IMG/VR virus record: IMGVR_UViG_2531839473_000009
Source of the DNA: a virus
Lineage: Duplodnaviria > Heunggongvirae > Uroviricota > Caudoviricetes
Strand: one strand, 5' to 3'
DNA: 10,411 nucleotides
Shown: positions 1-10,411 of the stretch, one piece after another
Layout of the letters: every line of letters begins with the position of its first letter
Numbering within the stretch: position 1 is the first letter of the stretch
Made by a program: the position numbers and the translations under genes
Notes under the pieces: generated by a model
What the model was told of the DNA's origin: nothing
Databases searched by the model: none
What the model saw: only the letters and a program-made list of their open reading frames with translations

Positions 1-1242
1 ATGGCGAGAAAAACACCCCCATTAACCACAGTGCAGATCAAAGCAGCCAGACCAGCGCAAAAGGAGTACACCCTACAGGACGGCGGTGGGCTTTTTCTCC
101 TGGTAAAACCGTCCGGATCAAAACTCTGGCGATTTTCCTACTACCGACCATCGGACAAAAAAAGAATATTGCTGAGTTTTGGATCGCTTGAAGATGTTTC
201 CCTGGCTGATGCCAGAAAACGCCGTAGCGAGTACAGGACGTTAATCAGTGCCGGAACTGACCCGCAGGACCATGAGAAGAAAAAACGAGAGGCAGAGGCC
301 CGAAGACAAGGGAACACGTTCGAAAATGTGGCGGCGGCATGGTACCAGGTGAAAATCAGCCAGAATCTGGCCCCCAACACGATTAAAGACATCTGGCGTT
401 CGCTGGATAAATATGTATTCCCGTTCATCGGCAACACGCCAATAGATACCCTCACTGCCCGAAGGTTCGTTGAGGTGCTTACACCCATCAAGGAGCGCGG
501 CAACCTGGAAACACTCAAGCGGGTTTTACAGCGCGTTAATGAGGTAATGGATTACGCCGCCAACAGTGGGCTGATTGATGCCAATCCGGCTATGAATGTG
601 CGTAAGGCGTTCCCCTCCCCTGTAAAAAAACATATGCCAACAATCCGCCCCGAACAGTTGCCGGAGCTTATGCAGGCTTTATCCGTATCAGCAACAGAAC
701 GGCAGACCAGATTACTGATTGAATGGCAGCTACTGACTGTAACCCGTCCGGTTGAAGCATCGTCAGCACGCTGGGAAGAAATCGACATGGACGCGCAACA
801 ATGGACGATCCCCGCCGGACGCATGAAGATGCGGCGTGATCACGTTATCCCGCTTTGTAGTCAGGCTATGGCGGTACTGGAGGCCATGAAGCCAATCAGC
901 CACCACCGCGAGCACGTTTTCCCTAGCCTGAAAGACCCACGGCAGCCTATGAACAGCCAGACCGCCAACGCAGCATTGCGGCGAATGGGATTCGCTGGCG
1001 TGCTGGTGTCTCATGGATTACGCGCCATATTCAGCACAGCAGCGAACGAGGAAGGATTCGAGCCGGACGTAATCGAGGCCGCACTCGCACACGTGGACAC
1101 GAACGAGGTAAGGCGAGCATATAACCGAAGTAACTACCTGGAAAAGCGCGTGGTGCTTATGCGCTGGTGGGGGGAATTTGTAGAGGCCGCAGCAACCGGA
1201 GTGACCATAGCCAGTGGTAAAAGGGGTATCCGTGCCGTGTAA
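1..1242 (+). CDS. int: Tyrosine-type site-specific integrase, P4/CP4-57 family (413 aa, apparently complete)
   Basis: N-terminus MARKTPPLTTVQIKAARP..YTLQDGGGLFLLVKPSGSKLWRFSY matches the arm-binding domain of P4-type integrases. C-terminus HGLRAIFSTAA...ALAHVDTNEVRRAYNRSNYLEKRVVLMRWW carries the H-x-x-R box and the conserved RAY..(catalytic Tyr)..LMxWW tail. ATG at window position 1, so the attachment site and any tRNA target lie upstream, outside the window. Confidence 0.92.
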   Translation: MARKTPPLTTVQIKAARPAQKEYTLQDGGGLFLLVKPSGSKLWRFSYYRPSDKKRILLSFGSLEDVSLADARKRRSEYRTLISAGTDPQDHEKKKREAEARRQGNTFENVAAAWYQVKISQNLAPNTIKDIWRSLDKYVFPFIGNTPIDTLTARRFVEVLTPIKERGNLETLKRVLQRVNEVMDYAANSGLIDANPAMNVRKAFPSPVKKHMPTIRPEQLPELMQALSVSATERQTRLLIEWQLLTVTRPVEASSARWEEIDMDAQQWTIPAGRMKMRRDHVIPLCSQAMAVLEAMKPISHHREHVFPSLKDPRQPMNSQTANAALRRMGFAGVLVSHGLRAIFSTAANEEGFEPDVIEAALAHVDTNEVRRAYNRSNYLEKRVVLMRWWGEFVEAAATGVTIASGKRGIRAV

Positions 1243-1343
1243 CTGTACAAAAAACCAGTAAAAGCGATGCAAACCATGCTAAACCATCGTATAATCACCA
1301 TATACAGAGAGACCCGACTCTTGAAATTCAAGGAGTTATCCGA

Positions 1344-1586
1344 GTGTTTTTCAATGAAAAGGTATCCCCTGCCTATGGTGAAGGCCTTCAACTGGCCTTA
1401 ATGGCAAATCGTGAATTCTGGTCAACGTACGATCCGGAAGACAAATCAACTGCCCCCACAAAACACGAGGTAGTCAGTTTTTTGCGCTCGCGTGGCGCAT
1501 CGAAAAATCTGGCTGAAAGTATCGACAAGGTGCTGAGGCCCACCAGCCTTAAATGCGGTGGGCGACCTAAGAAGTGGAAACGGTAA
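1344..1586 (+). CDS. Hypothetical small protein (80 aa), GTG start
   Basis: Open frame with a strong Shine-Dalgarno (CAAGGAG, 1329-1335) 8 nt upstream of GTG at 1344, followed by an intrinsic terminator. Basic C-terminus (GGRPKKWKR). No family recognised. Confidence 0.5.
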   Translation: MFFNEKVSPAYGEGLQLALMANREFWSTYDPEDKSTAPTKHEVVSFLRSRGASKNLAESIDKVLRPTSLKCGGRPKKWKR

Positions 1587-1592
1587 TCACAA

Positions 1593-1621
1593 TAGCGGCC
1601 CCTTGCGGTCGCTATTTTTTT
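1593..1621 (+). terminator. Rho-independent terminator after the 80-aa gene
   Basis: Stem TAGCGGCC / GGTCGCTA (8 bp with one G-U pair), 6-nt loop CCTTGC, then T7 run (1615-1621). Confidence 0.5.
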
Positions 1622-1665
1622 GCAGAAAGAAAAGCGTAATCAATAAGATAAAAAACAGTGGGTAC

Positions 1666-1702
1666 CGTTTTAAAACGGTGGGTACTGTTTTTCCCGCCCT
1701 GC
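1666..1702. promoter_or_regulatory. Direct repeat plus perfect 16-bp palindrome upstream of alpA (candidate operator)
   Basis: GTGGGTACCGTTTT and GTGGGTACTGTTTT direct repeats flank the perfect palindrome ACCGTTTTAAAACGGT (about 1674-1689), roughly 70 bp upstream of the alpA start. Confidence 0.35.
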
Positions 1703-1756
1703 CCTGTTTTACCGTATTTATCACCGGAATACGCCGGATTAACGAGGTAAAACATA

Positions 1757-1963
1757 GTGGAAACAATCAGAAAAATTCTTACCCGTCAGGAAGTAAAAAA
1801 TATTCTGCGCATCAAGGCAGACAGTTCGCTACAGGACATGATCAACGCCGGAAAATTCCCGAAAGGCTTCAAAATCGGTCTGCGCCGTGTTGGCTGGTAT
1901 GAAGATGAAGTGCTGGCCTGGCTGAAAGAGCGCGAGGAAGAAGCGCGCGGAACGGCTGCGTAA
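1757..1963 (+). CDS. alpA: AlpA-family phage transcriptional regulator / excisionase-like DNA-binding protein (68 aa, GTG start)
   Basis: Sequence ..LTRQEVKNILRIKADSSLQDMINAGKFPKGFKIGLRRVGWYEDEVLAWLKER has the AlpA/Vis/TorI signature (G-FPK ... R-VGW-E-EV-AWL). SD GAGGT sits 7 nt upstream of GTG. Position right after int is typical. Confidence 0.85.
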   Translation: METIRKILTRQEVKNILRIKADSSLQDMINAGKFPKGFKIGLRRVGWYEDEVLAWLKEREEEARGTAA

Positions 1964-2111
1964 TGGTGTGAGGCGTAACGCGATGAACATAACAAAAAGC
2001 GCCCCGTTGCCGGAGCGCCCTTGCGAACAATTAACCTGCTGCGAAAAAAATGGATCAGTGCAGTGGAATTATATCAACCGTGTGACGAAGCGCCACAATT
2101 GCCGGATAACA

Positions 2112-2142
2112 GGCAAAACAAAGGCCACCCGCTACGGTGGCC
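2112..2142 (-). terminator. Possible terminator for the leftward small regulator gene
   Basis: Hairpin GGCCACC-CGCTAC-GGTGGCC (2123-2142). On the - strand it is followed by the T-rich run TTTGTTTTG. Lies between the convergent alpA and minus-strand gene. Confidence 0.35.
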
Positions 2143-2245
2143 CCTCGACACAAGCTACACGTTATCCCCAACGCATGAGCATAGCCAACAATGCCACATT
2201 TGCGGCTGGTGGGCAAAGCGTAACCGGAAAAAAATTCCGGTGGAG

Positions 2246-2425
2246 CTACTCCTGCTCTTTGGCCTTGCGGCGCTGGCGGCGTTTGATCTCGCCGCGCATG
2301 GCTGCACTTATAAACTGCCCTGTACTTTCGCCTTCTTCTTTCACGTTTTCCATGCCTTCAATAATTTCATGGGCAATACGTGCAGTTACAGATTGTGATT
2401 TTGCATTCTTTGGACCTGTTGCCAT
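2246..2425 (-). CDS. Small DNA-binding protein (59 aa), candidate ribbon-helix-helix repressor
   Basis: Start chosen at the internal ATG (MATGPKNAKSQSVTARIAHEIIEGMENVKEEGESTGQFISAAMRGEIKRRQRRKAKEQE) because a consensus SD (AAGGAG) lies 6 nt upstream; the longer track ORF (to 2464) lacks one. Pattern of a short beta-strand (SQSVTARI), two helices and a basic tail resembles Arc/CopG/MetJ-type proteins. Transcribed divergently from an operator-rich promoter region. Confidence 0.6.
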   Translation of the reverse strand: MATGPKNAKSQSVTARIAHEIIEGMENVKEEGESTGQFISAAMRGEIKRRQRRKAKEQE

Positions 2426-2445
2426 GTCTAACTCCTTATGTTTTT

Positions 2446-2527
2446 GGTGTAAGACAATATACACGAAAAAAAATTATTTTGAAGGGTTGACGTGTAAGAC
2501 ACTATTATTTTATATTGTGTCTTACAC
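2446..2527. promoter_or_regulatory. Divergent promoter pair with three copies of a GTGTAAGACA(C) operator motif
   Basis: Rightward promoter: TTGACG (2487-2492), 18-bp spacer, TATATT (2511-2516). Leftward promoter on the - strand: TTCAAA, 16-bp spacer, TATATT (+ coordinates 2456-2483). Operator copies: GTGTAAGACA 2447-2456, GTGTAAGACAC 2492-2502 and its perfect inverse GTGTCTTACAC 2517-2527. The copies overlap the -35 and transcription-start regions of both promoters. Confidence 0.6.
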
Positions 2528-2624
2528 CTTGTTGATACAAGGTGCAGAAACGACGAAACCCGGCAGTGCGCTAACACTAACCGGGCTTCTAACCACCAAC
2601 GATAACGAGAGTATCGAGGTAGCT

Positions 2625-3239
2625 ATGTTAAATCATACCATACACCCGCAAGGGCGGGACTCGCACAACCTGAATAAATATATCTGGCGTTTTATCGCCC
2701 TGAGCACAGCACAACCGCGCGTGATTACCATTGAGGCCACCAGCGAACAGGAAGCACGCCAGAAAAACCAGTTGATCGCCATTGCCAGCCAGGGCTATGA
2801 TTTATCCGCACCAGCAAAATCTGGTGCCGGGATTGGCGTCCTGGTATTTAACGAAGCGCACAACACGCGCCCTGCGTGTTTTTTTGTGCCGGATAGTCAC
2901 ACCTTATCAATGGTGGGCTGTATGGGGGCGGAGCAATCCGCGCCGGGTTCTTCGTTAACCGGTTACGCCAACCCTGTACAGTCCACCGCCAGCGAAATTG
3001 GCGTTTCCTGCGGTGGGTTTATTAAACCTAACGAAGAGGCTGCCAACATGGCTACTATCCCTGCCCTCGTACATTCTCAAACTGCCTTTATCTGGCGCTT
3101 TATCATCTTTGGCGCGTCAGAATCCCAAATCATCCACGTAACCGCCTGGACGGAACGCGAAGCGCGTAGTCGTTGCCCGTCCGGTTGTGTTGCTGTATTC
3201 GCCGCCCGTATTCGTCAGGAGGTGCGCCATGTGCAATAA
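2625..3239 (+). CDS. Icd-like (host cell division inhibitor-like) protein, long form with two tandem Icd-like modules (205 aa)
   Basis: First ATG downstream of the rightward promoter, in the only long open frame. N-terminal module MLNHTIHPQGRDSHNLNKYIWRFIALSTAQPRVITIEATSEQEAR carries the HPQGR...IWRF...SE-EAR pattern I associate with Icd-like small proteins of P4-like islands. No stop codon separates it from the second module. The 1968..2624 part of the track ORF is rejected. Confidence 0.35.
   Translation: MLNHTIHPQGRDSHNLNKYIWRFIALSTAQPRVITIEATSEQEARQKNQLIAIASQGYDLSAPAKSGAGIGVLVFNEAHNTRPACFFVPDSHTLSMVGCMGAEQSAPGSSLTGYANPVQSTASEIGVSCGGFIKPNEEAANMATIPALVHSQTAFIWRFIIFGASESQIIHVTAWTEREARSRCPSGCVAVFAARIRQEVRHVQ
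3048..3239 (+). CDS. Icd-like small protein (63 aa), internal in-frame start of the same frame
   Basis: ATG at 3048 preceded by GAAGAGG 8 nt upstream. Product MATIPALVHSQTAFIWRFIIFGASESQIIHVTAWTEREARSRCPSGCVAVFAARIRQEVRHVQ is the more canonical Icd-like module (FIWRF ... EREAR ... FAxR) and has the size typical of that family. Its stop overlaps the next gene start. Confidence 0.45.
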   Translation: MATIPALVHSQTAFIWRFIIFGASESQIIHVTAWTEREARSRCPSGCVAVFAARIRQEVRHVQ

Positions 3240-3459
3240 AAACACGCCGGACGCAGCAGGCGAAGCATTGAAAGTACTGATACATGCGCTTGTGGATATA
3301 AATTGCATGGTAGAGATCATGGAGAGGAAATCACAGTCGGAGTACGACAAAAGAAAATTTAAAACAATAAAAATAATTATCAAAAACTCACTGACAAAAG
3401 CTACAGACATCCTCAATGAGGACACTAAAAGAATCAGGGAGAAACTGTGTGATGCATAA
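3229..3459 (+). CDS. Hypothetical protein (76 aa), AT-rich accessory gene
   Basis: ATG at 3229 with consensus SD AGGAGG (3216-3221). Overlaps the upstream stop by 11 nt. Local GC is about 30-37% (hand count of 60-nt blocks) versus about 55% in the flanks. Predicted lysine-rich product, no family recognised. Confidence 0.5.
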   Translation: MCNKNTPDAAGEALKVLIHALVDINCMVEIMERKSQSEYDKRKFKTIKIIIKNSLTKATDILNEDTKRIREKLCDA

Positions 3460-3679
3460 AATACCCTTTAATGTTCTTATTCATTCTGAGAATGCATTAA
3501 TCCGCGCAAAGGAAATGGAGGCATTATTACTTAAGTTAATGGAAGTGCCGGAAAATGGCGATGAATCATATCCCATGATGTTTTCTGCCGTGCACACATT
3601 ATTAACGCCAGTAATTAACGAATTAAATACAGTGATGGCAATTCACGAGAATAATAAAGCGCATCACACCGGAGAATAA
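3452..3679 (+). CDS. Hypothetical protein (75 aa), AT-rich accessory gene
   Basis: ATG at 3452 (MHKIPFNVLIHSENALIRAKEMEALLLKLMEV...) with SD-like AGGGAGA about 9 nt upstream. Overlaps the previous stop by 8 nt. Same low-GC block. The track ORF start at 3416 is rejected because it has no SD. Confidence 0.5.
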   Translation: MHKIPFNVLIHSENALIRAKEMEALLLKLMEVPENGDESYPMMFSAVHTLLTPVINELNTVMAIHENNKAHHTGE

Positions 3680-3684
3680 AAACC

Positions 3685-3984
3685 ATGAAACAGAAAAATT
3701 CTGGCTTTACTGCCAGTGGCCTCGCTCGGCCTGAAATCCGCCCCGGCGATATTTTCCGGGATAACTACGGCGGCACGGTAACGATTAAAAGCGTGGCGGG
3801 ACGGTGCGTAACTTACCGCCGTGAAGGTTACGAATATGATTGCGTGATGCCTGTTTATCAGTTCCGGCGTGATTTTTCTCTGGTACAGACCGCGCCGCAT
3901 AACGTGCCCACCAGCAACGCCAGGGCACGGGCAAACATCCAGAAGCTGAAAACCATGATTAACGGATTCAGGGGTAAAAAATGA
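3685..3984 (+). CDS. Hypothetical protein (99 aa) immediately upstream of and coupled to the primase gene
   Basis: ATG at 3685 with GGAGA 9 nt upstream. Its stop overlaps the primase start (ATGA, 3981-3984). Occupies the position held by small helper-interaction genes (epsilon-like) in P4-type left operons, but no sequence similarity can be asserted. Confidence 0.6.
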   Translation: MKQKNSGFTASGLARPEIRPGDIFRDNYGGTVTIKSVAGRCVTYRREGYEYDCVMPVYQFRRDFSLVQTAPHNVPTSNARARANIQKLKTMINGFRGKK

Positions 3985-5735
3985 AACTGGCACCGAACGT
4001 AAAACAGCAGTCACGCGGCATAAAACACAAAGAAACAGAAGTCATTATTTTTGCGGGTAGTGATGCCTGGTCACACGCAAAACAATGGCAGGAACATGAC
4101 GCGCGTCTGGCCGGAGATAATGAGCCTCCTGTGTGGCTTGGGGAGCAGCAGTTATCAGAACTGGATAAGCTGCAAATTGTGCCGGAAGGCAGAAAATCCG
4201 TGCGCATATTCAGGGCCGGATATCTTGCGCCAGTAATGATAAAGGCGATTGGCCAGAAGCTGGCGGCGGCAGGCGTACAGGATGCAAATTTTTATCCTGA
4301 GGGTATGCACGGCCAAGAGGTGCAGAACTGGCGCGAATATCTGGCCCGTGAGCGACAGAATCTTTCTGATGGTCTGGTCATTGAGCTTCCGGTAAAGCAA
4401 AAGGCGCAACTTTCGCAGATGGCGGACAGTGAGCGCGCGCAGCTGCTTGCCGATCGCTTTGATGGCGTTTGCGTACATCCTGAAAGTGAAATCGTTTACG
4501 TATGGCGCGGCGGGGTATGGTGTCCGGTCAGCACAATGGAACTTAGCCGCGAAATGGTGGCGATCTATTCAGAGCACAGGGCCACTTTCAGCAAGCGCGT
4601 AATCAATAACGCCGTGGAAGCGTTAAAAGTTATTGCCGAACCAATGGGCGAGCCGTCCGGCGATTTGCTGCCGTTCGCCAATGGTGCGCTTGACCTGAAA
4701 ACGGGGGAATTTTCCCCGCACACGCCGGAGAACTGGATCACCACGCACAACGGTATTGAGTACACGCCACCAGCACCAGGGGAGAATATCCGCGACAACG
4801 CGCCAAACTTTCATAAATGGCTTGAGCACGTAGCCGGAAAAGACCCGCGCAAGATGATGCGTATATGTGCCGCGCTGTACATGATTATGGCGAACCGGTA
4901 CGACTGGCAGATGTTTATTGAGGCCACCGGAGACGGCGGGAGCGGTAAAAGTACATTCACGCACATAGCCAGCCTTCTGGCAGGGAAACAGAACACGGTG
5001 AGCGCGGAGATGACATCGCTTGATGATGCTGGTGGACGTGCGCAGGTTGTCGGGAGTCGTCTTATCGTCCTGGCTGACCAGCCGAAATATACAGGCGAAG
5101 GAACGGGCATCAAGAAAATCACGGGCGGCGACCCCGTGGAAATTAACCCGAAATATGAAAAGCGTTTTACGGCGGTAATCAGGGCGGTGGTGCTGGCTAC
5201 CAACAATAACCCGATGATATTCACCGAACGGGCCGGAGGTGTGTCACGTCGTCGCATAATTTTCCGTTTCGACAATATCGTCAGTGAGGCCGAAAAAGAC
5301 AGGGAGCTACCGGAAAAGATTGCGGCTGAAATCCCTGTCATTATCCGCCGATTGCTGGCGAACTTTACCGACCCTGAGAAGGCACGGGCTTTACTACTGG
5401 AACAGCGTGACGGTGATGAAGCACTGGCAATAAAGCAACAGACGGATCCGGTTATTGAGTTTTGCCAGTTCCTGAATTTTCTGGAGGAAGCGCGCGGCCT
5501 GATGATGGGTGGCGGTGGTGATTCAGTGAAGTACACGACCAGGAACAGCCTTTATCGCGTCTATCTGGCGTTTATGGCGTACGCAGGCAGGAGCAAACCG
5601 CTAAACGTAAATGACTTTGGCAAGGCTATGAAGCCAGCCGCGAAAGTTTACGGACATAAATATATTACGCGGAAAGTTAAGGGAGTAACGCAGACTAACG
5701 CAATAACAACAGACGAGTGCGACGCGTTTTTATAA
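3981..5735 (+). CDS. Replication initiator: primase / SF3-type helicase (P4 alpha-like / D5 family, 584 aa)
   Basis: Walker A motif ATGDGGSGKST (nt about 4922-4954) and a Walker B-like RLIVLAD a short distance downstream. Large size, position after alpA and directly upstream of an iteron cluster match the pri-rep genes of PICI/P4-like satellites. Confidence 0.88.
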   Translation: MKLAPNVKQQSRGIKHKETEVIIFAGSDAWSHAKQWQEHDARLAGDNEPPVWLGEQQLSELDKLQIVPEGRKSVRIFRAGYLAPVMIKAIGQKLAAAGVQDANFYPEGMHGQEVQNWREYLARERQNLSDGLVIELPVKQKAQLSQMADSERAQLLADRFDGVCVHPESEIVYVWRGGVWCPVSTMELSREMVAIYSEHRATFSKRVINNAVEALKVIAEPMGEPSGDLLPFANGALDLKTGEFSPHTPENWITTHNGIEYTPPAPGENIRDNAPNFHKWLEHVAGKDPRKMMRICAALYMIMANRYDWQMFIEATGDGGSGKSTFTHIASLLAGKQNTVSAEMTSLDDAGGRAQVVGSRLIVLADQPKYTGEGTGIKKITGGDPVEINPKYEKRFTAVIRAVVLATNNNPMIFTERAGGVSRRRIIFRFDNIVSEAEKDRELPEKIAAEIPVIIRRLLANFTDPEKARALLLEQRDGDEALAIKQQTDPVIEFCQFLNFLEEARGLMMGGGGDSVKYTTRNSLYRVYLAFMAYAGRSKPLNVNDFGKAMKPAAKVYGHKYITRKVKGVTQTNAITTDECDAFL

Positions 5736-5749
5736 TTTTTTGTAATTGC

Positions 5750-5975
5750 TGTCTACCCTGTCTACCTGAGTAAAGAAAAATACATTTAATTCAGTGCATT
5801 AAGTTATGTAGATAGCCTTTTTTTACTATCTACCCACTATCTACCCTCTCTACCTGATTTTACCTGAATCAGACAGGGAGGTAGACACGGGGTAGATAGT
5901 GGATAAAAGCACTCTACCCCGCTGAAAGCCGCGCCATTACTGGCATGAGGGCCACTAAGGTAGATAAGGTAGACA
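5750..5975. repeat. Iteron cluster, candidate origin of replication
   Basis: At least five direct copies of core TCTACC (5752, 5761, 5829, 5840, 5849, plus CTCTACCCC at about 5913) and four inverted copies GGTAGA (5880, 5891, 5959, 5969). Many are spaced 9-11 bp apart in a non-coding gap directly downstream of the primase/helicase gene. Confidence 0.6.
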
Positions 5976-7343: not shown

Positions 7344-8398
7344 TGGCAGGCAAAGCAACGGCACTTAACACTAACCAGCTTTTCATGTACCTGAATCGCG
7401 GGGATATTGCGGAATTTAAATTCAGTCCGCTGTTTACCACGCTGTTTTTCCCGAACGTGGCGACATTCAACACCCAAAACATCATGCTGGACACCCTGGA
7501 CATTGAAGAGGTTACGATGTCGGCGTTTTGTTCGCCTATGGTGGGTAGTCAGGTCCAGCGCGATAAAGGGTACGAAACCAGCACGATTAAACCTGGATAC
7601 ATGAAGCCGAAGCACGAAATCGATCCAACGAAAACCATCATACGTATGGCTGGAGAAGATCCGGCACAGCTTAATGACCCAACCTATCGCCGTATGCGCC
7701 TGATTACTGGCAACATGCGCCGCCAGATAAACGCGATTAAAGCGCGCGTGGAATGGCTGGCGGTGAATGCGATAACGACCGGAAAAAACATCATTGAGGG
7801 CGAAGGCATAGAACGCTATGAAATCGACTGGAAGATACCGGAAAAAAACATCATAGAGCAGGCCAAAGGCCGTAAATGGTCCGAGCAGGACAAAGAAACC
7901 CACGATCCAATCTATGATATCGAGCTTTATGCGGATCAAGCATGTTGCCCCGCCAACGTCATGATCATGGGCGCTGAGGTATGGCGAACGTTACGCAGCT
8001 TTAAAAAATTCCGCGAACTGTACGATCTTTCCCGTGGTTCAGAGTCCTCCGCAGAGCTGGCCTGTAAAAACCTGGGCGAAGTGGTGAGCTTTAAAGGATA
8101 TCTGGGCGATATTGCCCTTATCGTCTATTCCGGCAAATACACTGACAGCGACGGCACCGAAAAATATTTCCTTGAGCCTGATTTGCTGGTCCTGGGCAAC
8201 ACCAACAATAAAGGGCTGGTGGCCTATGGTGCGATTATGGATCAGGAAGCGGTCAGAACGGGCGCAACGCAAAACATGTTTTACCCGAAAAACTGGATTG
8301 AGGACGGCGATCCGGCGATTGAGTACGTGCAGACGCACAGCGCACCGCAGCCGGTTCCGGCAGATATTCGCAAATTTGTTACCGTCAAAATTGGTTAA
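7343..8398 (+). CDS. Major capsid protein, lambda gpE family (351 aa)
   Basis: Collinear similarity to recalled lambda E along the whole length: FKFSPLFTTLFF versus FKFDPLFLRLFF; PGYMKPKHEIDP versus PGYVKPKHEVNP; DPTYRRMRLI versus DPAYRRRRII; IVYSGKY...LVLGNTNNKGLVAYGAI versus VVYSGQY...MVLGNTQARGLRTYGCI; YPKNWIEDGDPAIEY versus YPKNWVTTGDPAREF; C-terminus FVTVKIG versus FVSVQLA. SD GGGGTG 6 nt upstream. Confidence 0.9.
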   Translation: MAGKATALNTNQLFMYLNRGDIAEFKFSPLFTTLFFPNVATFNTQNIMLDTLDIEEVTMSAFCSPMVGSQVQRDKGYETSTIKPGYMKPKHEIDPTKTIIRMAGEDPAQLNDPTYRRMRLITGNMRRQINAIKARVEWLAVNAITTGKNIIEGEGIERYEIDWKIPEKNIIEQAKGRKWSEQDKETHDPIYDIELYADQACCPANVMIMGAEVWRTLRSFKKFRELYDLSRGSESSAELACKNLGEVVSFKGYLGDIALIVYSGKYTDSDGTEKYFLEPDLLVLGNTNNKGLVAYGAIMDQEAVRTGATQNMFYPKNWIEDGDPAIEYVQTHSAPQPVPADIRKFVTVKIG

Positions 8399-8409
8399 CG
8401 GGGGATTCT

Positions 8410-8745
8410 ATGGACACTCCATACATTGAGTTATTTGCAGGCAGTCAGCAGGTTGCCACGACGCTGGTACATTTTGCCGCTGATGCTGGCGTTATTCAGG
8501 AATTTACCCCGCTGATGCTGGCGGACAATGGCGAATTTAAGCCGTGGGATGGTCAGGAATCTGGCAAGGCTGTTTATCTGACGGCGTATCCCGTGGACAC
8601 GTCAACGCAGAAATCAGCACAGTGTTACAAGACGGGGATATTCAATATTGCCGCCGTTAACTGGCCTGAGAGCGTCGACACCGACGCGAAAAAATGTGCC
8701 GCCTTTGCGGGTTCTGGTGTATCTGTTCAGCCGCTGGCGCGATAA
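8410..8745 (+). CDS. Head decoration protein, lambda gpD family (111 aa)
   Basis: TPLMLADNGEFKPWDG versus lambda D TPLMLDTSSRKLVAWDG; YKTGIFNIAAVNWPESVDTDAKKCAAFAGSGVSV versus [34 protein letters not shown]. Same length class as gpD; SD GGGGGA upstream. Lies downstream of the E-like gene, the opposite order to lambda. Confidence 0.85.
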   Translation: MDTPYIELFAGSQQVATTLVHFAADAGVIQEFTPLMLADNGEFKPWDGQESGKAVYLTAYPVDTSTQKSAQCYKTGIFNIAAVNWPESVDTDAKKCAAFAGSGVSVQPLAR

Positions 8746-8758
8746 GCAGGGGGGAACG

Positions 8759-9172
8759 ATGGCAACGAATGAAAGTATCATGGCGCTACCGCTGGCGAGT
8801 AAATTTAAAGCTGAAGCGCGGGCAATGGCTGACAGATGTCTATCAACCTACGAAGCTATATATCAACTTAACAAACTGGAAGAACAGGACAAGCCGCGCG
8901 CTGATGCGATTATGTCGCTTCATGAATCTGACGACTATCAGCCGCTGTTACGTGCAATGGCAAACGTGCCTTGTATTGATGTTGATACGGCTAAAAACAT
9001 CCTGAACATGACCATAGAACAGGAACGCCAGAAGGTTGCACCAGAGCTTACCGCAGCCTTTGAAAACTTTATGGACATGCACAGCCCACAAGCCGTATCA
9101 GCTGGCATGGCATACGATGGCAGAAACCCGGGCGATGACGGCGACATTGATCGCATACTGAAAACCATCTGA
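8759..9172 (+). CDS. Hypothetical protein (137 aa), last gene of the capsid module
   Basis: ATG at 8759 with G-rich SD (AGGGGGG) 6-8 nt upstream; the longer track ORF start (8648) overlaps the decoration gene and lacks an SD. Acidic C-terminus. Followed by an intrinsic terminator. No family recognised. Confidence 0.55.
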   Translation: MATNESIMALPLASKFKAEARAMADRCLSTYEAIYQLNKLEEQDKPRADAIMSLHESDDYQPLLRAMANVPCIDVDTAKNILNMTIEQERQKVAPELTAAFENFMDMHSPQAVSAGMAYDGRNPGDDGDIDRILKTI

Positions 9173-9926: not shown

Positions 9927-10411
9927 TGGATTTGCCCCTATATTTCCAGACATCTGTTATCACTTAACCCATTACAAGCCCGCTGCCGCAGATATTCCCG
10001 TGGCGAGCGATAACCCAGCGCACTATGCGGATGCCATTCGTTATAATGCTCGAACGCCTCTGCAAGGTTCTTTGCTGCCGTTAACCCGTCTGGTTTGGGC
10101 ATGATACTGATGTAGTCACGCTTTATCGTTTTCACGAAGCTCTCTGCTATTCCGTTACTCTCCGGACTCCGCACCGCCGTGTTCTTCGGTTCAAGTCCCA
10201 ACATCCGGGCGAACTGGCGTGTTTCATTAGCCCGGTAGCATGAACCATTATCCGTCAGCCACTCCACTGGAGACGACGGAAGATCGTTGCCGAAGCGGCG
10301 TTCCACCGCTCCCAGCATGACGTCCTGTACTGTTTCACTGTTGAAGCCGCCAGTAGTCACCGCCCAGTGCAGTGCCTCACGATCACAGCAGTCCAGCGCG
10401 AACGTGACACG
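9927..10411 (-). mobile_element. IS2 (IS3 family), right end and 3' part, truncated by the window edge
   Basis: Terminal sequence TGGATTTGCCCCTATATTTCCAGACATCTGTTATCACTTAACC matches the remembered IS2 end adjacent to the orfB stop, including the conserved TTTCCAGACA...TATCACTTAA inverted-repeat core. Element boundary placed at about 9927. Target-site duplication cannot be checked because the other end is outside the window. Confidence 0.8.
9938..10411 (-). CDS. insD: IS2 transposase OrfB (InsD), C-terminal part; 5' end outside the window
   Basis: The reverse frame is open to the window edge (..[40 protein letters not shown]...[19 protein letters not shown]...[24 protein letters not shown]). 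It matches the IS2 InsD C-terminus from memory and has the DDE-domain tail typical of IS3-family OrfB. Confidence 0.9.

Follow-up and report, generated by a model that had tools for sequence, protein, structure and literature searches.

In the immI region of phages P1 and P7, which is ordered c4 RNA, icd and ant, the C4 RNA blocks the ribosome-binding site of icd and so brings about Rho-dependent termination before ant. In P4, kil is the short product and the late promoter upstream is the only source of full-length Eta, which is coupled to the alpA homologue, according to the passages in which PMC10111431 summarises Forti et al. (1999); the same passages, citing that study, report from nonsense mutations and their suppression that translation of eta prevents transcription termination. 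Matches to C4 and isrK have been noted in Gram-negative phage-inducible chromosomal islands (PICIs) (PMC10111431), and PICI AlpA, which is induced by the helper, activates the downstream island genes; an early comparison of PICIs with P4 found only three proteins of distant homology (PMC6092414). Gifsy-1 has an open reading frame (ORF) that overlies a C4-like RNA; it is translated, and the gene that follows is coupled to it (PMC4825925). Here we analyse a viral DNA of 10,411 nucleotides (nt) from IMG/VR (record IMGVR_UViG_2531839473_000009; the whole stretch is called the window), and in particular its region 1964-3239, where an earlier note had seen two Icd-like modules in one uninterrupted frame. 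From sequence comparison, this is probably the immunity and early-control region of a P4-like island, a Gram-negative PICI. It would be best explained as a nested pair of the P4 eta/kil type surrounding a C4/CI cassette, together with a vestigial Icd N-terminus. The RNA elements, their complementarities, the homology to P4, the mosaic origin of the locus and the conserved openness of the frame support this explanation.

The eta frame of P4 (NC_001609) ends at 8168 and is open back to 8821. It has 197-199 codons and begins with MMM at 8767, where it overlaps the stop codon of the alpA homologue, ORF88/vis. It contains matches to isrK (8615-8692) and C4 (8420-8507), and Kil corresponds to its last 65 residues, which score 76.1 bits against NF033153, 'host cell division inhibitor Icd-like protein'. 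The long frame of the window likewise starts next to the alpA stop, as the P4 ATG overlaps the vis stop. ATG 2625 and ATG 1983 lie upstream of a promoter-like site at 2772-2801, and isrK and C4 fall within the frame, as a nested eta/kil arrangement would have it. The features concerned are the following.

1757-1963, + strand: alpA, a regulator of the AlpA/Vis family (Pfam Phage_AlpA, 33.3 bits)
1926-3239, + strand: continuous stop-free, eta-like frame of 437 sense codons, closed by TAA at 3237-3239
2625-2765, + strand: Icd-like module 1, the start codon and first 46-47 codons of a second Icd allele
3048-3239, + strand: Icd-like module 2, a complete Icd/Kil-like gene of 63 codons (NF033153, 59.6 bits)

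The in-frame starts of the long frame are GTG 1968, ATG 1983 (with GAGG at 1970-1973), ATG 2625 and ATG 3048, the first two lying 5 and 20 nt past the alpA stop. Between 1964 and 3236 it contains no stop codon, against 15 and 25 in the other two forward frames, and the statement that 2625-3239 is uninterrupted holds, the frame being open from 1926. Module 2 spans the whole NF033153 profile (positions 1-48 of 48) and its Shine-Dalgarno (SD) sequence, GAGG at 3036-3039, lies 8 nt upstream of ATG 3048, so that the second module does have its own SD and start, as had been proposed; its 63-residue protein is the predicted short product nested at the end of the long frame. Module 1 (2625-2780, with the SD GAGG at 2616-2619) scores 40.4 bits and covers profile positions 1-32 of 48. 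It is not a complete domain, the C-terminal third with the conserved 'CPSGCVxVFAARIRQ' being absent. Both scores exceed the curated cut-off of 25 bits, which bears out the description of both modules as Icd-like, and the two align with 35% identity across 34 residues (E 1e-8). The distance between them is 94 residues (from residue 47 to residue 142) and not about 85.

An independent contig (locus L009) carries the two-module arrangement at 97% identity, and the full form is present in protein clusters from Escherichia coli, Citrobacter and Salmonella (P0002, with 65 member sequences, P0024, P0027 and P0028); it is therefore no assembly error. The form is rare: when window 2400-3300 was used as query against 5,426 complete E. 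coli genomes, 5 covered at least 80% of it in one place and 1,889 held parts of it. A conserved stop between the modules in homologues had been named as the sign of an error or a pseudogene; the comparison favours the nested arrangement, since 21 of 22 distinct cassette sequences are stop-free in this frame (against 2-10 and 0-7 stops in the other two) and the SD and ATG of module 2 are conserved. The suggestion of a long and a short isoform finds support by homology in the P4 layout, where kil is the tail of an eta frame spanning the CI RNA; translation in the window is predicted.

The spacer of 94 codons holds two Rfam RNA families together with their targets. By these matches, the stretch between the modules is an antisense-RNA immunity cassette of the P4/P1 type and no protein linker.

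2772-2801, + strand: internal promoter-like site, TTGATC, 18 nt, TATGAT (consensus match)
2808-2884, + strand: IsrK/seqA-like RNA (Rfam RF01394, 80 bits, model positions 1-77 of 77)
2906-2993, + strand: C4/CI-type antisense RNA (Rfam RF01695, 75.3 bits)
2998-3039, + strand: target set 2, TTGGCGT at 2998-3004 and TAACGAAGA at 3029-3037, complementary to the C4 elements

The IsrK/seqA-like RNA exceeds the gathering score of its family (50 bits) and comes with a promoter and a terminator of its own, both being consensus matches only: position 1 of the IsrK model lies 7 nt past the end of the promoter-like site, and a terminator-like hairpin (stem 2862-2880, then a T-run) stands at the end of the RNA. 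The promoter-like site is presumed to be the analogue of P4 PLE, with predicted activity. Its -35 hexamer overlaps the invariant Leu50 and near-invariant Ile51 codons, and its -10 hexamer is kept in the cassette alignment. Target set 1 lies inside this RNA and consists of TTGGCGT (2833-2839) and TTAACGAAG (2848-2856). The c4-a1b1 target model (RF03163) scores 42.9 bits at 2795-2847, under its gathering score of 46.7, in a region that overlaps the stronger isrK match; a relative, L038, attains 46.8 bits.

The C4-type RNA is well above its gathering score of 45 bits and its recognition elements are the loop TCTTCGTTAA (2949-2958) and the single-stranded ACGCCAA (2965-2971). Among 16 homologues, taken from islands, P4, a P1-like phage, SfV, VT2-Sakai and a Salmonella phage, none of the 27 pairs of its fold is broken and 12 show compensatory changes, as expected of a member of the family. 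The loop is complementary to 2848-2856 and 3029-3037, and ACGCCAA to 2833-2839 and 2998-3004; both elements thus have exact complements of 7-9 nt on each flank, which is the duplicated target of such systems, and the downstream loop target overlaps the SD of ATG 3048.

This pairing is kept while the sequences change. The comparison drew on 80 related loci from IMG/VR (designated by L numbers), and among L001-L046 there are 11 C4 loop combinations, with each loop assorting independently of the other. In 10 of the 11, each loop is matched by a complement of 7 nt or more on one flank or both; on both flanks, complements of that length are found for the b loop in 10 and for the a loop in 8 (the a-loop exceptions include L036 and L039, whose upstream matches reach only 5 nt). 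One loop of L038 has a 5-nt complement upstream and none downstream. At the sequence level, covariation of loop and target is the signature of P1 C4 and P4 CI immunity. L038 also holds two C4 RNA matches (2902-2989 and 3380-3467, at 75.3 and 73.2 bits), the second having an a1b1/isrK-like element of its own (3263-3354) and standing downstream of the first icd, and its cassette appears to be duplicated in tandem.

The cassette can also be read as protein. The Pfam family PF10554 (Phage_ASH, 'Ash protein family') matches residues 59-151 of the 204-residue frame that starts at ATG 2625 (2799-3077) with 59.5 bits, against a gathering score of 26 bits. This match belongs to a different reading, in which the 204-codon ORF encodes a genuine two-domain protein, made of a partial Icd, Ash and a second Icd, which arose by tandem duplication and all parts of which contribute to activity. 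Besides the Ash match and the Icd scores of both modules, it can point to the Ash/Icd fusion annotation carried by hundreds of database proteins and to positive codon-usage scores for module 1 (0.25) and the cassette frame (0.21). However, the residues matched by Ash are the translation of isrK, C4 and the target RNAs, and their variation follows RNA pairing and the covariation of loops with targets, not codon position: an excess of variation at third codon positions is absent from the cassette (24 distinct cassettes). In an AlphaFold model of the 204 residues, built with a 50-sequence alignment, the predicted local distance difference test (pLDDT) is 25-39 for residues 1-149 and reaches 63-78 only in module 2. 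From variation and model alike, the peptide encoded by the cassette does not look selected as a protein, and the 'Ash' family looks like a model of translated RNA genes. Many such frames carry the name 'ash family protein' or long 'Icd-like protein' in annotations of the Prokaryotic Genome Annotation Pipeline (PGAP), which often treats them as pseudogenes.

The frame upstream of 2625 is no more protein-like. Its codon usage in the window is not coding-like and cysteine makes up 4.6% of its residues; translated long frames in general have 4.6-5.1% cysteine, are depleted in acidic residues and have a codon-usage score of about 0. A Pfam search of the long frames (219-819 residues) returned no domain other than Ash, and we therefore rejected the idea of a hidden real gene on the + strand of the upstream part.

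The origin of module 1 also bears on the two-domain protein. Matches in E. coli break at 2762/2763, and window segments 2447-2765 and 2763-3259 each recur alone. Two further features of the window enter this comparison.

2246-2464, - strand: divergent small gene of the YlcI/YnfO family, called ylcI below (NCBIfam NF041551, 66 bits)
2487-2527, + strand: promoter-like site TTGACG, 18 nt, TATATT (2487-2516) within an inverted repeat (sequence match)

In islands of the L002 type, the same ylcI, palindromic promoter and leader drive one complete Icd of 66 residues and there is no RNA cassette; the first 46 residues of this Icd differ from module 1 at two positions. Islands of the L003 type have the cassette and no ylcI. 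Where the leader is kept, its junction upstream of the cassette takes one of five forms, all in frame, among 33 distinct cassette loci.

Junction type 1: full module 1, in the window and L009 only (2 of 33)
Junction type 2: "NLNK-AGM-KN..."
Junction type 3: "NLNK-PDV-KN..."
Junction type 4: "YIWRFLA-RKN..."
Junction type 5: another truncated Icd N-terminus, "HTQTAFVWRFLALNIGE-KN..."

In most relatives the core of module 1 has been lost through in-frame deletions of 25 or 16 codons, and the start, SD and first 18 codons of ORF 2625 are nearly invariant. The breakpoint, the L002 allele and the junction types together identify module 1 as the remnant of a second icd allele and not as a local tandem duplication. 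By this comparison, it was recombined in frame onto the cassette together with a module made of ylcI, operator, promoter and leader, and most lineages have since trimmed it yet kept the frame. The proposal of a tandem duplication fused into one protein is not supported, since the modules are different alleles that meet at a recombination breakpoint and relatives dispense with the core of the first. With module 1 covering just two thirds of its profile (32 of 48 positions) and preserved in full in so few cassette loci, we regard a functional two-domain protein as highly improbable.

A milder view takes the two-module form for a decaying or accidental recombinant, in which module 1 is an inconsequential pseudogene remnant and the island works like its single-leader relatives. 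The rarity of full module 1, both in E. coli genomes and among cassette loci, and the several different deletions found in relatives are in keeping with it. On the other side stand the near invariance of the start, SD and first 18 codons, the occurrence of the full form in three genera and the fact that every deletion has kept the frame. It is, moreover, compatible with the nested eta/kil explanation and not opposed to it; as an account in its own right it seems very unlikely.

The nested eta/kil explanation implies a sequence of events which we infer from the P1, P4 and Gifsy-1 analogies as far as promoter use, translation of the long frame and anti-termination are concerned. The cassette would be read in the order internal promoter, IsrK/seqA-like RNA with target set 1 and terminator, C4/CI RNA, and finally target set 2, which lies over the ribosome-binding site of icd. 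RNA started at the internal promoter would, by analogy with those three systems, stay untranslated up to ATG 3048 and yield the IsrK-like RNA, with C4 RNA arising from read-through and processing. C4 would then pair with its targets and, at target set 2, block the icd ribosome-binding site; the untranslated RNA would be terminated ahead of the replication genes and the island would be silent. The long frame would correspond to P4 eta. Transcripts from the operator-controlled promoter at 2487 would let ribosomes enter it at ATG 2625, and the helper-induced alpA transcript would let them enter at GTG 1968 or ATG 1983, just past alpA. On transcripts started upstream, ribosomes would pass the targets, the terminator and C4 up to the icd stop, and this passage would, as P4 eta is reported to do, override immunity and shield the RNA from Rho. 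As its long product the frame would give an Icd extended at the N-terminus, in which the middle 'Ash' part is only the conceptual translation of RNA genes.

Stops between alpA and icd were counted in 45 non-redundant clusters having both genes. Fifteen have none in the long frame, over 835-2,419 nt, compared with 14-49 in the other forward frames, and five more have 1-2; in neither of the other forward frames is the span stop-free in any of the 45. The earlier note had followed the open frame back to 1968, correctly, and had considered this part non-coding, which is likely wrong given these counts. Pooled over about 3,380 distinct codon contexts, the long frame has 0 stops and the others 215 and 184. 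From leader ATG to icd stop, the frame is open in 31 of the 33 distinct cassette loci. At the alpA end, relatives show four junction types, each with an in-frame ATG 11-58 nt past the alpA stop. The extreme case is L013, where an ORF of 805 codons (1120-3537) starts 5 nt after alpA and crosses three minus-strand small genes. This ORF includes two copies of the ylcI-type/promoter/leader module, and Ash, at its C-terminal end, is its sole Pfam match.

The strongest competitor for these data holds that only the 63-residue Icd from ATG 3048 is translated and that the open frame is a functionless by-product of RNA constraint, of a stop-poor ylcI antisense strand and of shared ancestry. One phase antisense to ylcI is indeed stop-free even in ylcI and ynfO of K-12, and the second frame of the cassette has only 0-2 stops in most variants. 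Against this, the openness runs through AT-rich promoter and intergenic DNA that is otherwise unconstrained: at the stop rate of the other frames, the openness of window segments 1968-2246, 2466-2624 and 2781-3047 has P values of about 0.0035, 0.04 and 0.0045. The stretch antisense to ylcI is left out of this estimate, because it has no stop in any of the 38 homologues, in phase with icd or out of it, nor in the K-12 genes, and we rejected it as evidence of selection. In K-12 the open antisense phase closes 28-50 nt past ylcI and within 28 nt of ynfO. The five upstream junction types are independent and all in frame, and the four alpA-junction types retain their in-frame ATG. Large indels between open loci (75, 255, 345 and 495, in the pairs checked) are all multiples of 3, and other open-locus pairs have smaller gap runs that are not multiples of 3 and a net length difference that is always 0 modulo 3; this pattern is conditional on the choice of open loci and carries little weight.

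In SfV and the Salmonella phage, the cassette lies inside single frames of 279 and 400 sense codons. In the Stx phage VT2-Sakai it is spread over short separate ORFs, and in Gifsy-1 a separate orf45 lies over the C4-like RNA (PMC4825925). The last two cases can be read as favouring a by-product, but VT2-Sakai equally shows that the cassette tolerates a broken frame and therefore that RNA constraint by itself does not impose a continuous one. According to the passages of PMC10111431 that summarise the earlier work, P4 functionally requires eta to be translated. Openness combined with a composition unlike that of proteins argues, at the level of sequence, that translation itself is selected and not its product, and we consider a mere by-product unlikely.

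Several observations nevertheless weigh against the nested eta/kil explanation and the selection that it implies. In 25 of the 45 clusters there are at least 6 stops between alpA and icd, and the frame is open only over the proximal 87-357 codons. Two of the 33 cassette loci are broken, L023 by a frameshift and L006 by a deletion of 1 nt ahead of the ATG. The openness is partly due to something else, since the ylcI antisense phase is stop-free in every homologue examined, and in the GC-rich cassette the second frame is nearly stop-free too. The 15 clusters with zero stops share segments and are not independent. A transcript from alpA would need to cross the convergent ylcI transcription unit. 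Finally, both promoters (2487 and 2772), the upstream starts (1968/1983 and 2625) and read-through are predicted features.

As to L006, which comes from Escherichia albertii, the deletion lies between SD and ATG and puts the cassette frame out of the icd frame. The cassette frame is nevertheless open over 3519-4178, for 219 sense codons: it passes through the cassette, covers nearly the whole of icd in the +1 phase and closes 11 nt short of the icd stop.

Upstream of ORF 2625, two more putative control elements can be recognised. The YlcI/YnfO-family gene is the one described earlier as ribbon-helix-helix-like; a literature search on YlcI/YnfO function found nothing useful. Its protein is presumed to repress the palindromic operator, an inverted repeat of 14 nt (2492-2505 / 2514-2527) around the 2487 promoter-like site, and this site is presumed to be the operator-controlled promoter of the transcript carrying ATG 2625. 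Terminator-like hairpins follow ylcI on the minus strand at 2145-2120 and 2022-1995. The stop-free antisense phase recurs in every ylcI/ynfO-family gene examined, namely the 38 island homologues, with identities as low as 32%, and the K-12 genes ylcI and ynfO, which lie in a different context (L092 5252-5446; L093 2757-2990). The other two antisense phases have 0-6 stops, and both have zero only in L013 and L041. The second element is a small RNA.

2552-2624, - strand: candidate cis-antisense small RNA of about 73 nt, with two hairpins and a U-rich tail

This RNA would be complementary to the leader and SD of ORF 2625, ending 1 nt short of the ATG, and is a candidate antisense regulator of that start. 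The minus strand of 2624-2552 folds at -36.5 kcal/mol (z -5.95), the plus strand at -20.5 (z -2.87). Among 19 variants, 8 of 26 pairs show compensatory changes, all in the 3' hairpin, and several invariant G-U pairs are possible on the minus strand only. Transcription would begin near 2624 if TGgTATGAT, the complement of 2632-2640, serves as an extended -10. The candidate also occurs in islands that have no C4 cassette (L002, L015). The Rfam symR model (RF01809) matches weakly over its full length, at 33 bits where its gathering score is 61, and membership was rejected on this score, the likeness being one of position and shape. The candidate resembles SymR of the symE/SymR pair in size and in where it lies, since it covers leader and SD as far as the start codon of a small protein that may be toxic; it differs in that there is no SymE homologue here and that variants with other hairpin sequences do not match the SymR model.

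Taken together, these elements allow a bolder reading, to which we give slightly less than an even chance. The whole span of 0.8-2.4 kb between alpA and icd may be kept as a stop-free 'ribosome track' that runs antisense through genes and in which the amino acids are irrelevant. It would cross ylcI and other genes, promoters, operators, a terminator and two RNA genes, and the swapping of modules would leave it intact, each of them being free of stops and a multiple of three in length. Its sole role would be to have the helper-induced alpA transcript translated throughout, and so to escape both Rho and RNA immunity, with the SymR-like antisense RNA separately gating the internal start at 2625.

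The remainder of the window agrees with an island. Profile searches found int, alpA, DUF4222, primase, SSB, major head, head decoration and small terminase genes. The order int - alpA - primase - packaging genes, in one direction over about 10-15 kb and without a full phage gene set, is that of Gram-negative PICIs, and by this gene content the window is such an island, P4-like and with predicted helper dependence. It is 100% identical to IMG/VR contig UViG_2671180296_000007 (11,051 bp). In E. coli chromosomes, a tRNA-Pro gene directly adjoins close relatives (L001 47-123; L003 1-70) and is the likely integration site. The gene after icd opens the block of small ORFs, DUF4222 and primase.

3229-3459, + strand: first downstream ORF, 76 codons (phrog_5146), its ATG overlapping the end of icd by 11 nt

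At 5822-5903, weak matches to microRNA precursors (mir-135, mir-4716) occur on both strands at the same place and therefore mark a long palindromic hairpin between the primase gene and the next ORF, which could be a terminator or an origin element. The translation of an ORF at 9938-10360 on the minus strand resembles, as judged by eye, the C-terminal catalytic part of an IS3-family transposase, so that an insertion sequence may lie at the right end of the island or close to it.

The puzzling "two-domain protein" is replaced here by a concrete regulatory layout, in which an Icd/Kil-like gene and the replication genes would stand under three layers of control, namely a repressor with its operator, a candidate cis-antisense RNA and C4/CI RNA immunity. 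Gram-negative PICIs are thereby linked mechanistically to P4. The comparison provides evidence for selection on translation as such over hundreds of codons, which, if true, would be a natural anti-termination device. For annotation, Pfam "Ash" and many long "Icd-like/Ash family" entries appear to model translated RNA genes. If the ribosome track is real, these and many other 'Icd-like' database proteins would be translations of RNA genes and antisense DNA, and the principle of P4 eta would widen from a curiosity of 199 codons to a general design rule of satellite regulatory regions. The 11 independently assorting loop combinations, 10 of them with matching targets, amount to a natural set of orthogonal RNA immunity specificities. 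The parts most worth experiment are the long stop-free track after alpA and the candidate antisense RNA.

Of the systems compared, SfV (orf37, 'immunity region') and Salmonella phage 118970_sal3 (antirepressor) resemble the window in having a single frame through isrK and C4, the frames of 279 and 400 sense codons already mentioned, which start at the end of the preceding gene and continue into a downstream 'MATVP...' protein. They differ in their C-terminal domain, an antirepressor or another protein and not Icd, and in their location in the phage cro operon, not after alpA. The isrK - orf45 - anrP region of Gifsy-1 shares an IsrK RNA that has a promoter of its own and a leaky terminator, a C4-like RNA (STnc1160) that arises when read-through transcripts are processed, and the translated ORF over that RNA (PMC4825925). 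There, however, orf45 is separate, has 45 codons and extends from after the IsrK terminator to the start of anrP (PMC4825925); no single frame leads from upstream of the promoter into an Icd gene, and VT2-Sakai has the same short-ORF pattern.

P1/P7 immI has in common with the window a C4 RNA with two recognition elements, an Icd-like gene directly downstream, and target sets on both sides, the downstream one lying over the icd ribosome-binding site. In a P1-like phage, the Icd frame is likewise open through C4, for 138 sense codons, but opens only about 50 nt upstream of C4, is unlinked to the upstream gene, and is followed by an antirepressor gene instead of a replication module.

P4, with its order PLL - vis - eta/kil, CI RNA, seqA and seqB, shares the alpA/vis homologue immediately followed by a long frame, the isrK/seqA-like element and the C4/CI RNA inside that frame, a frame end in an Icd-like protein of 63-65 residues with its own SD and ATG ('MAT...'), and small ORFs and primase downstream. 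In the window, the frame has 424 codons against 199, runs antisense to the divergent ylcI-family gene and passes through a second, palindrome-controlled promoter. Extra features are the internal start at 2625, with part of a second Icd module, and the candidate antisense RNA over this start. The spacing between isrK and C4 is 21 nt, compared with about 107 nt in P4, and the element carries head genes where P4 has none. The eta/kil layout as such is known from P4, and the two-module arrangement, with its vestigial Icd N-terminus and its extra repressor-controlled promoter, is new.

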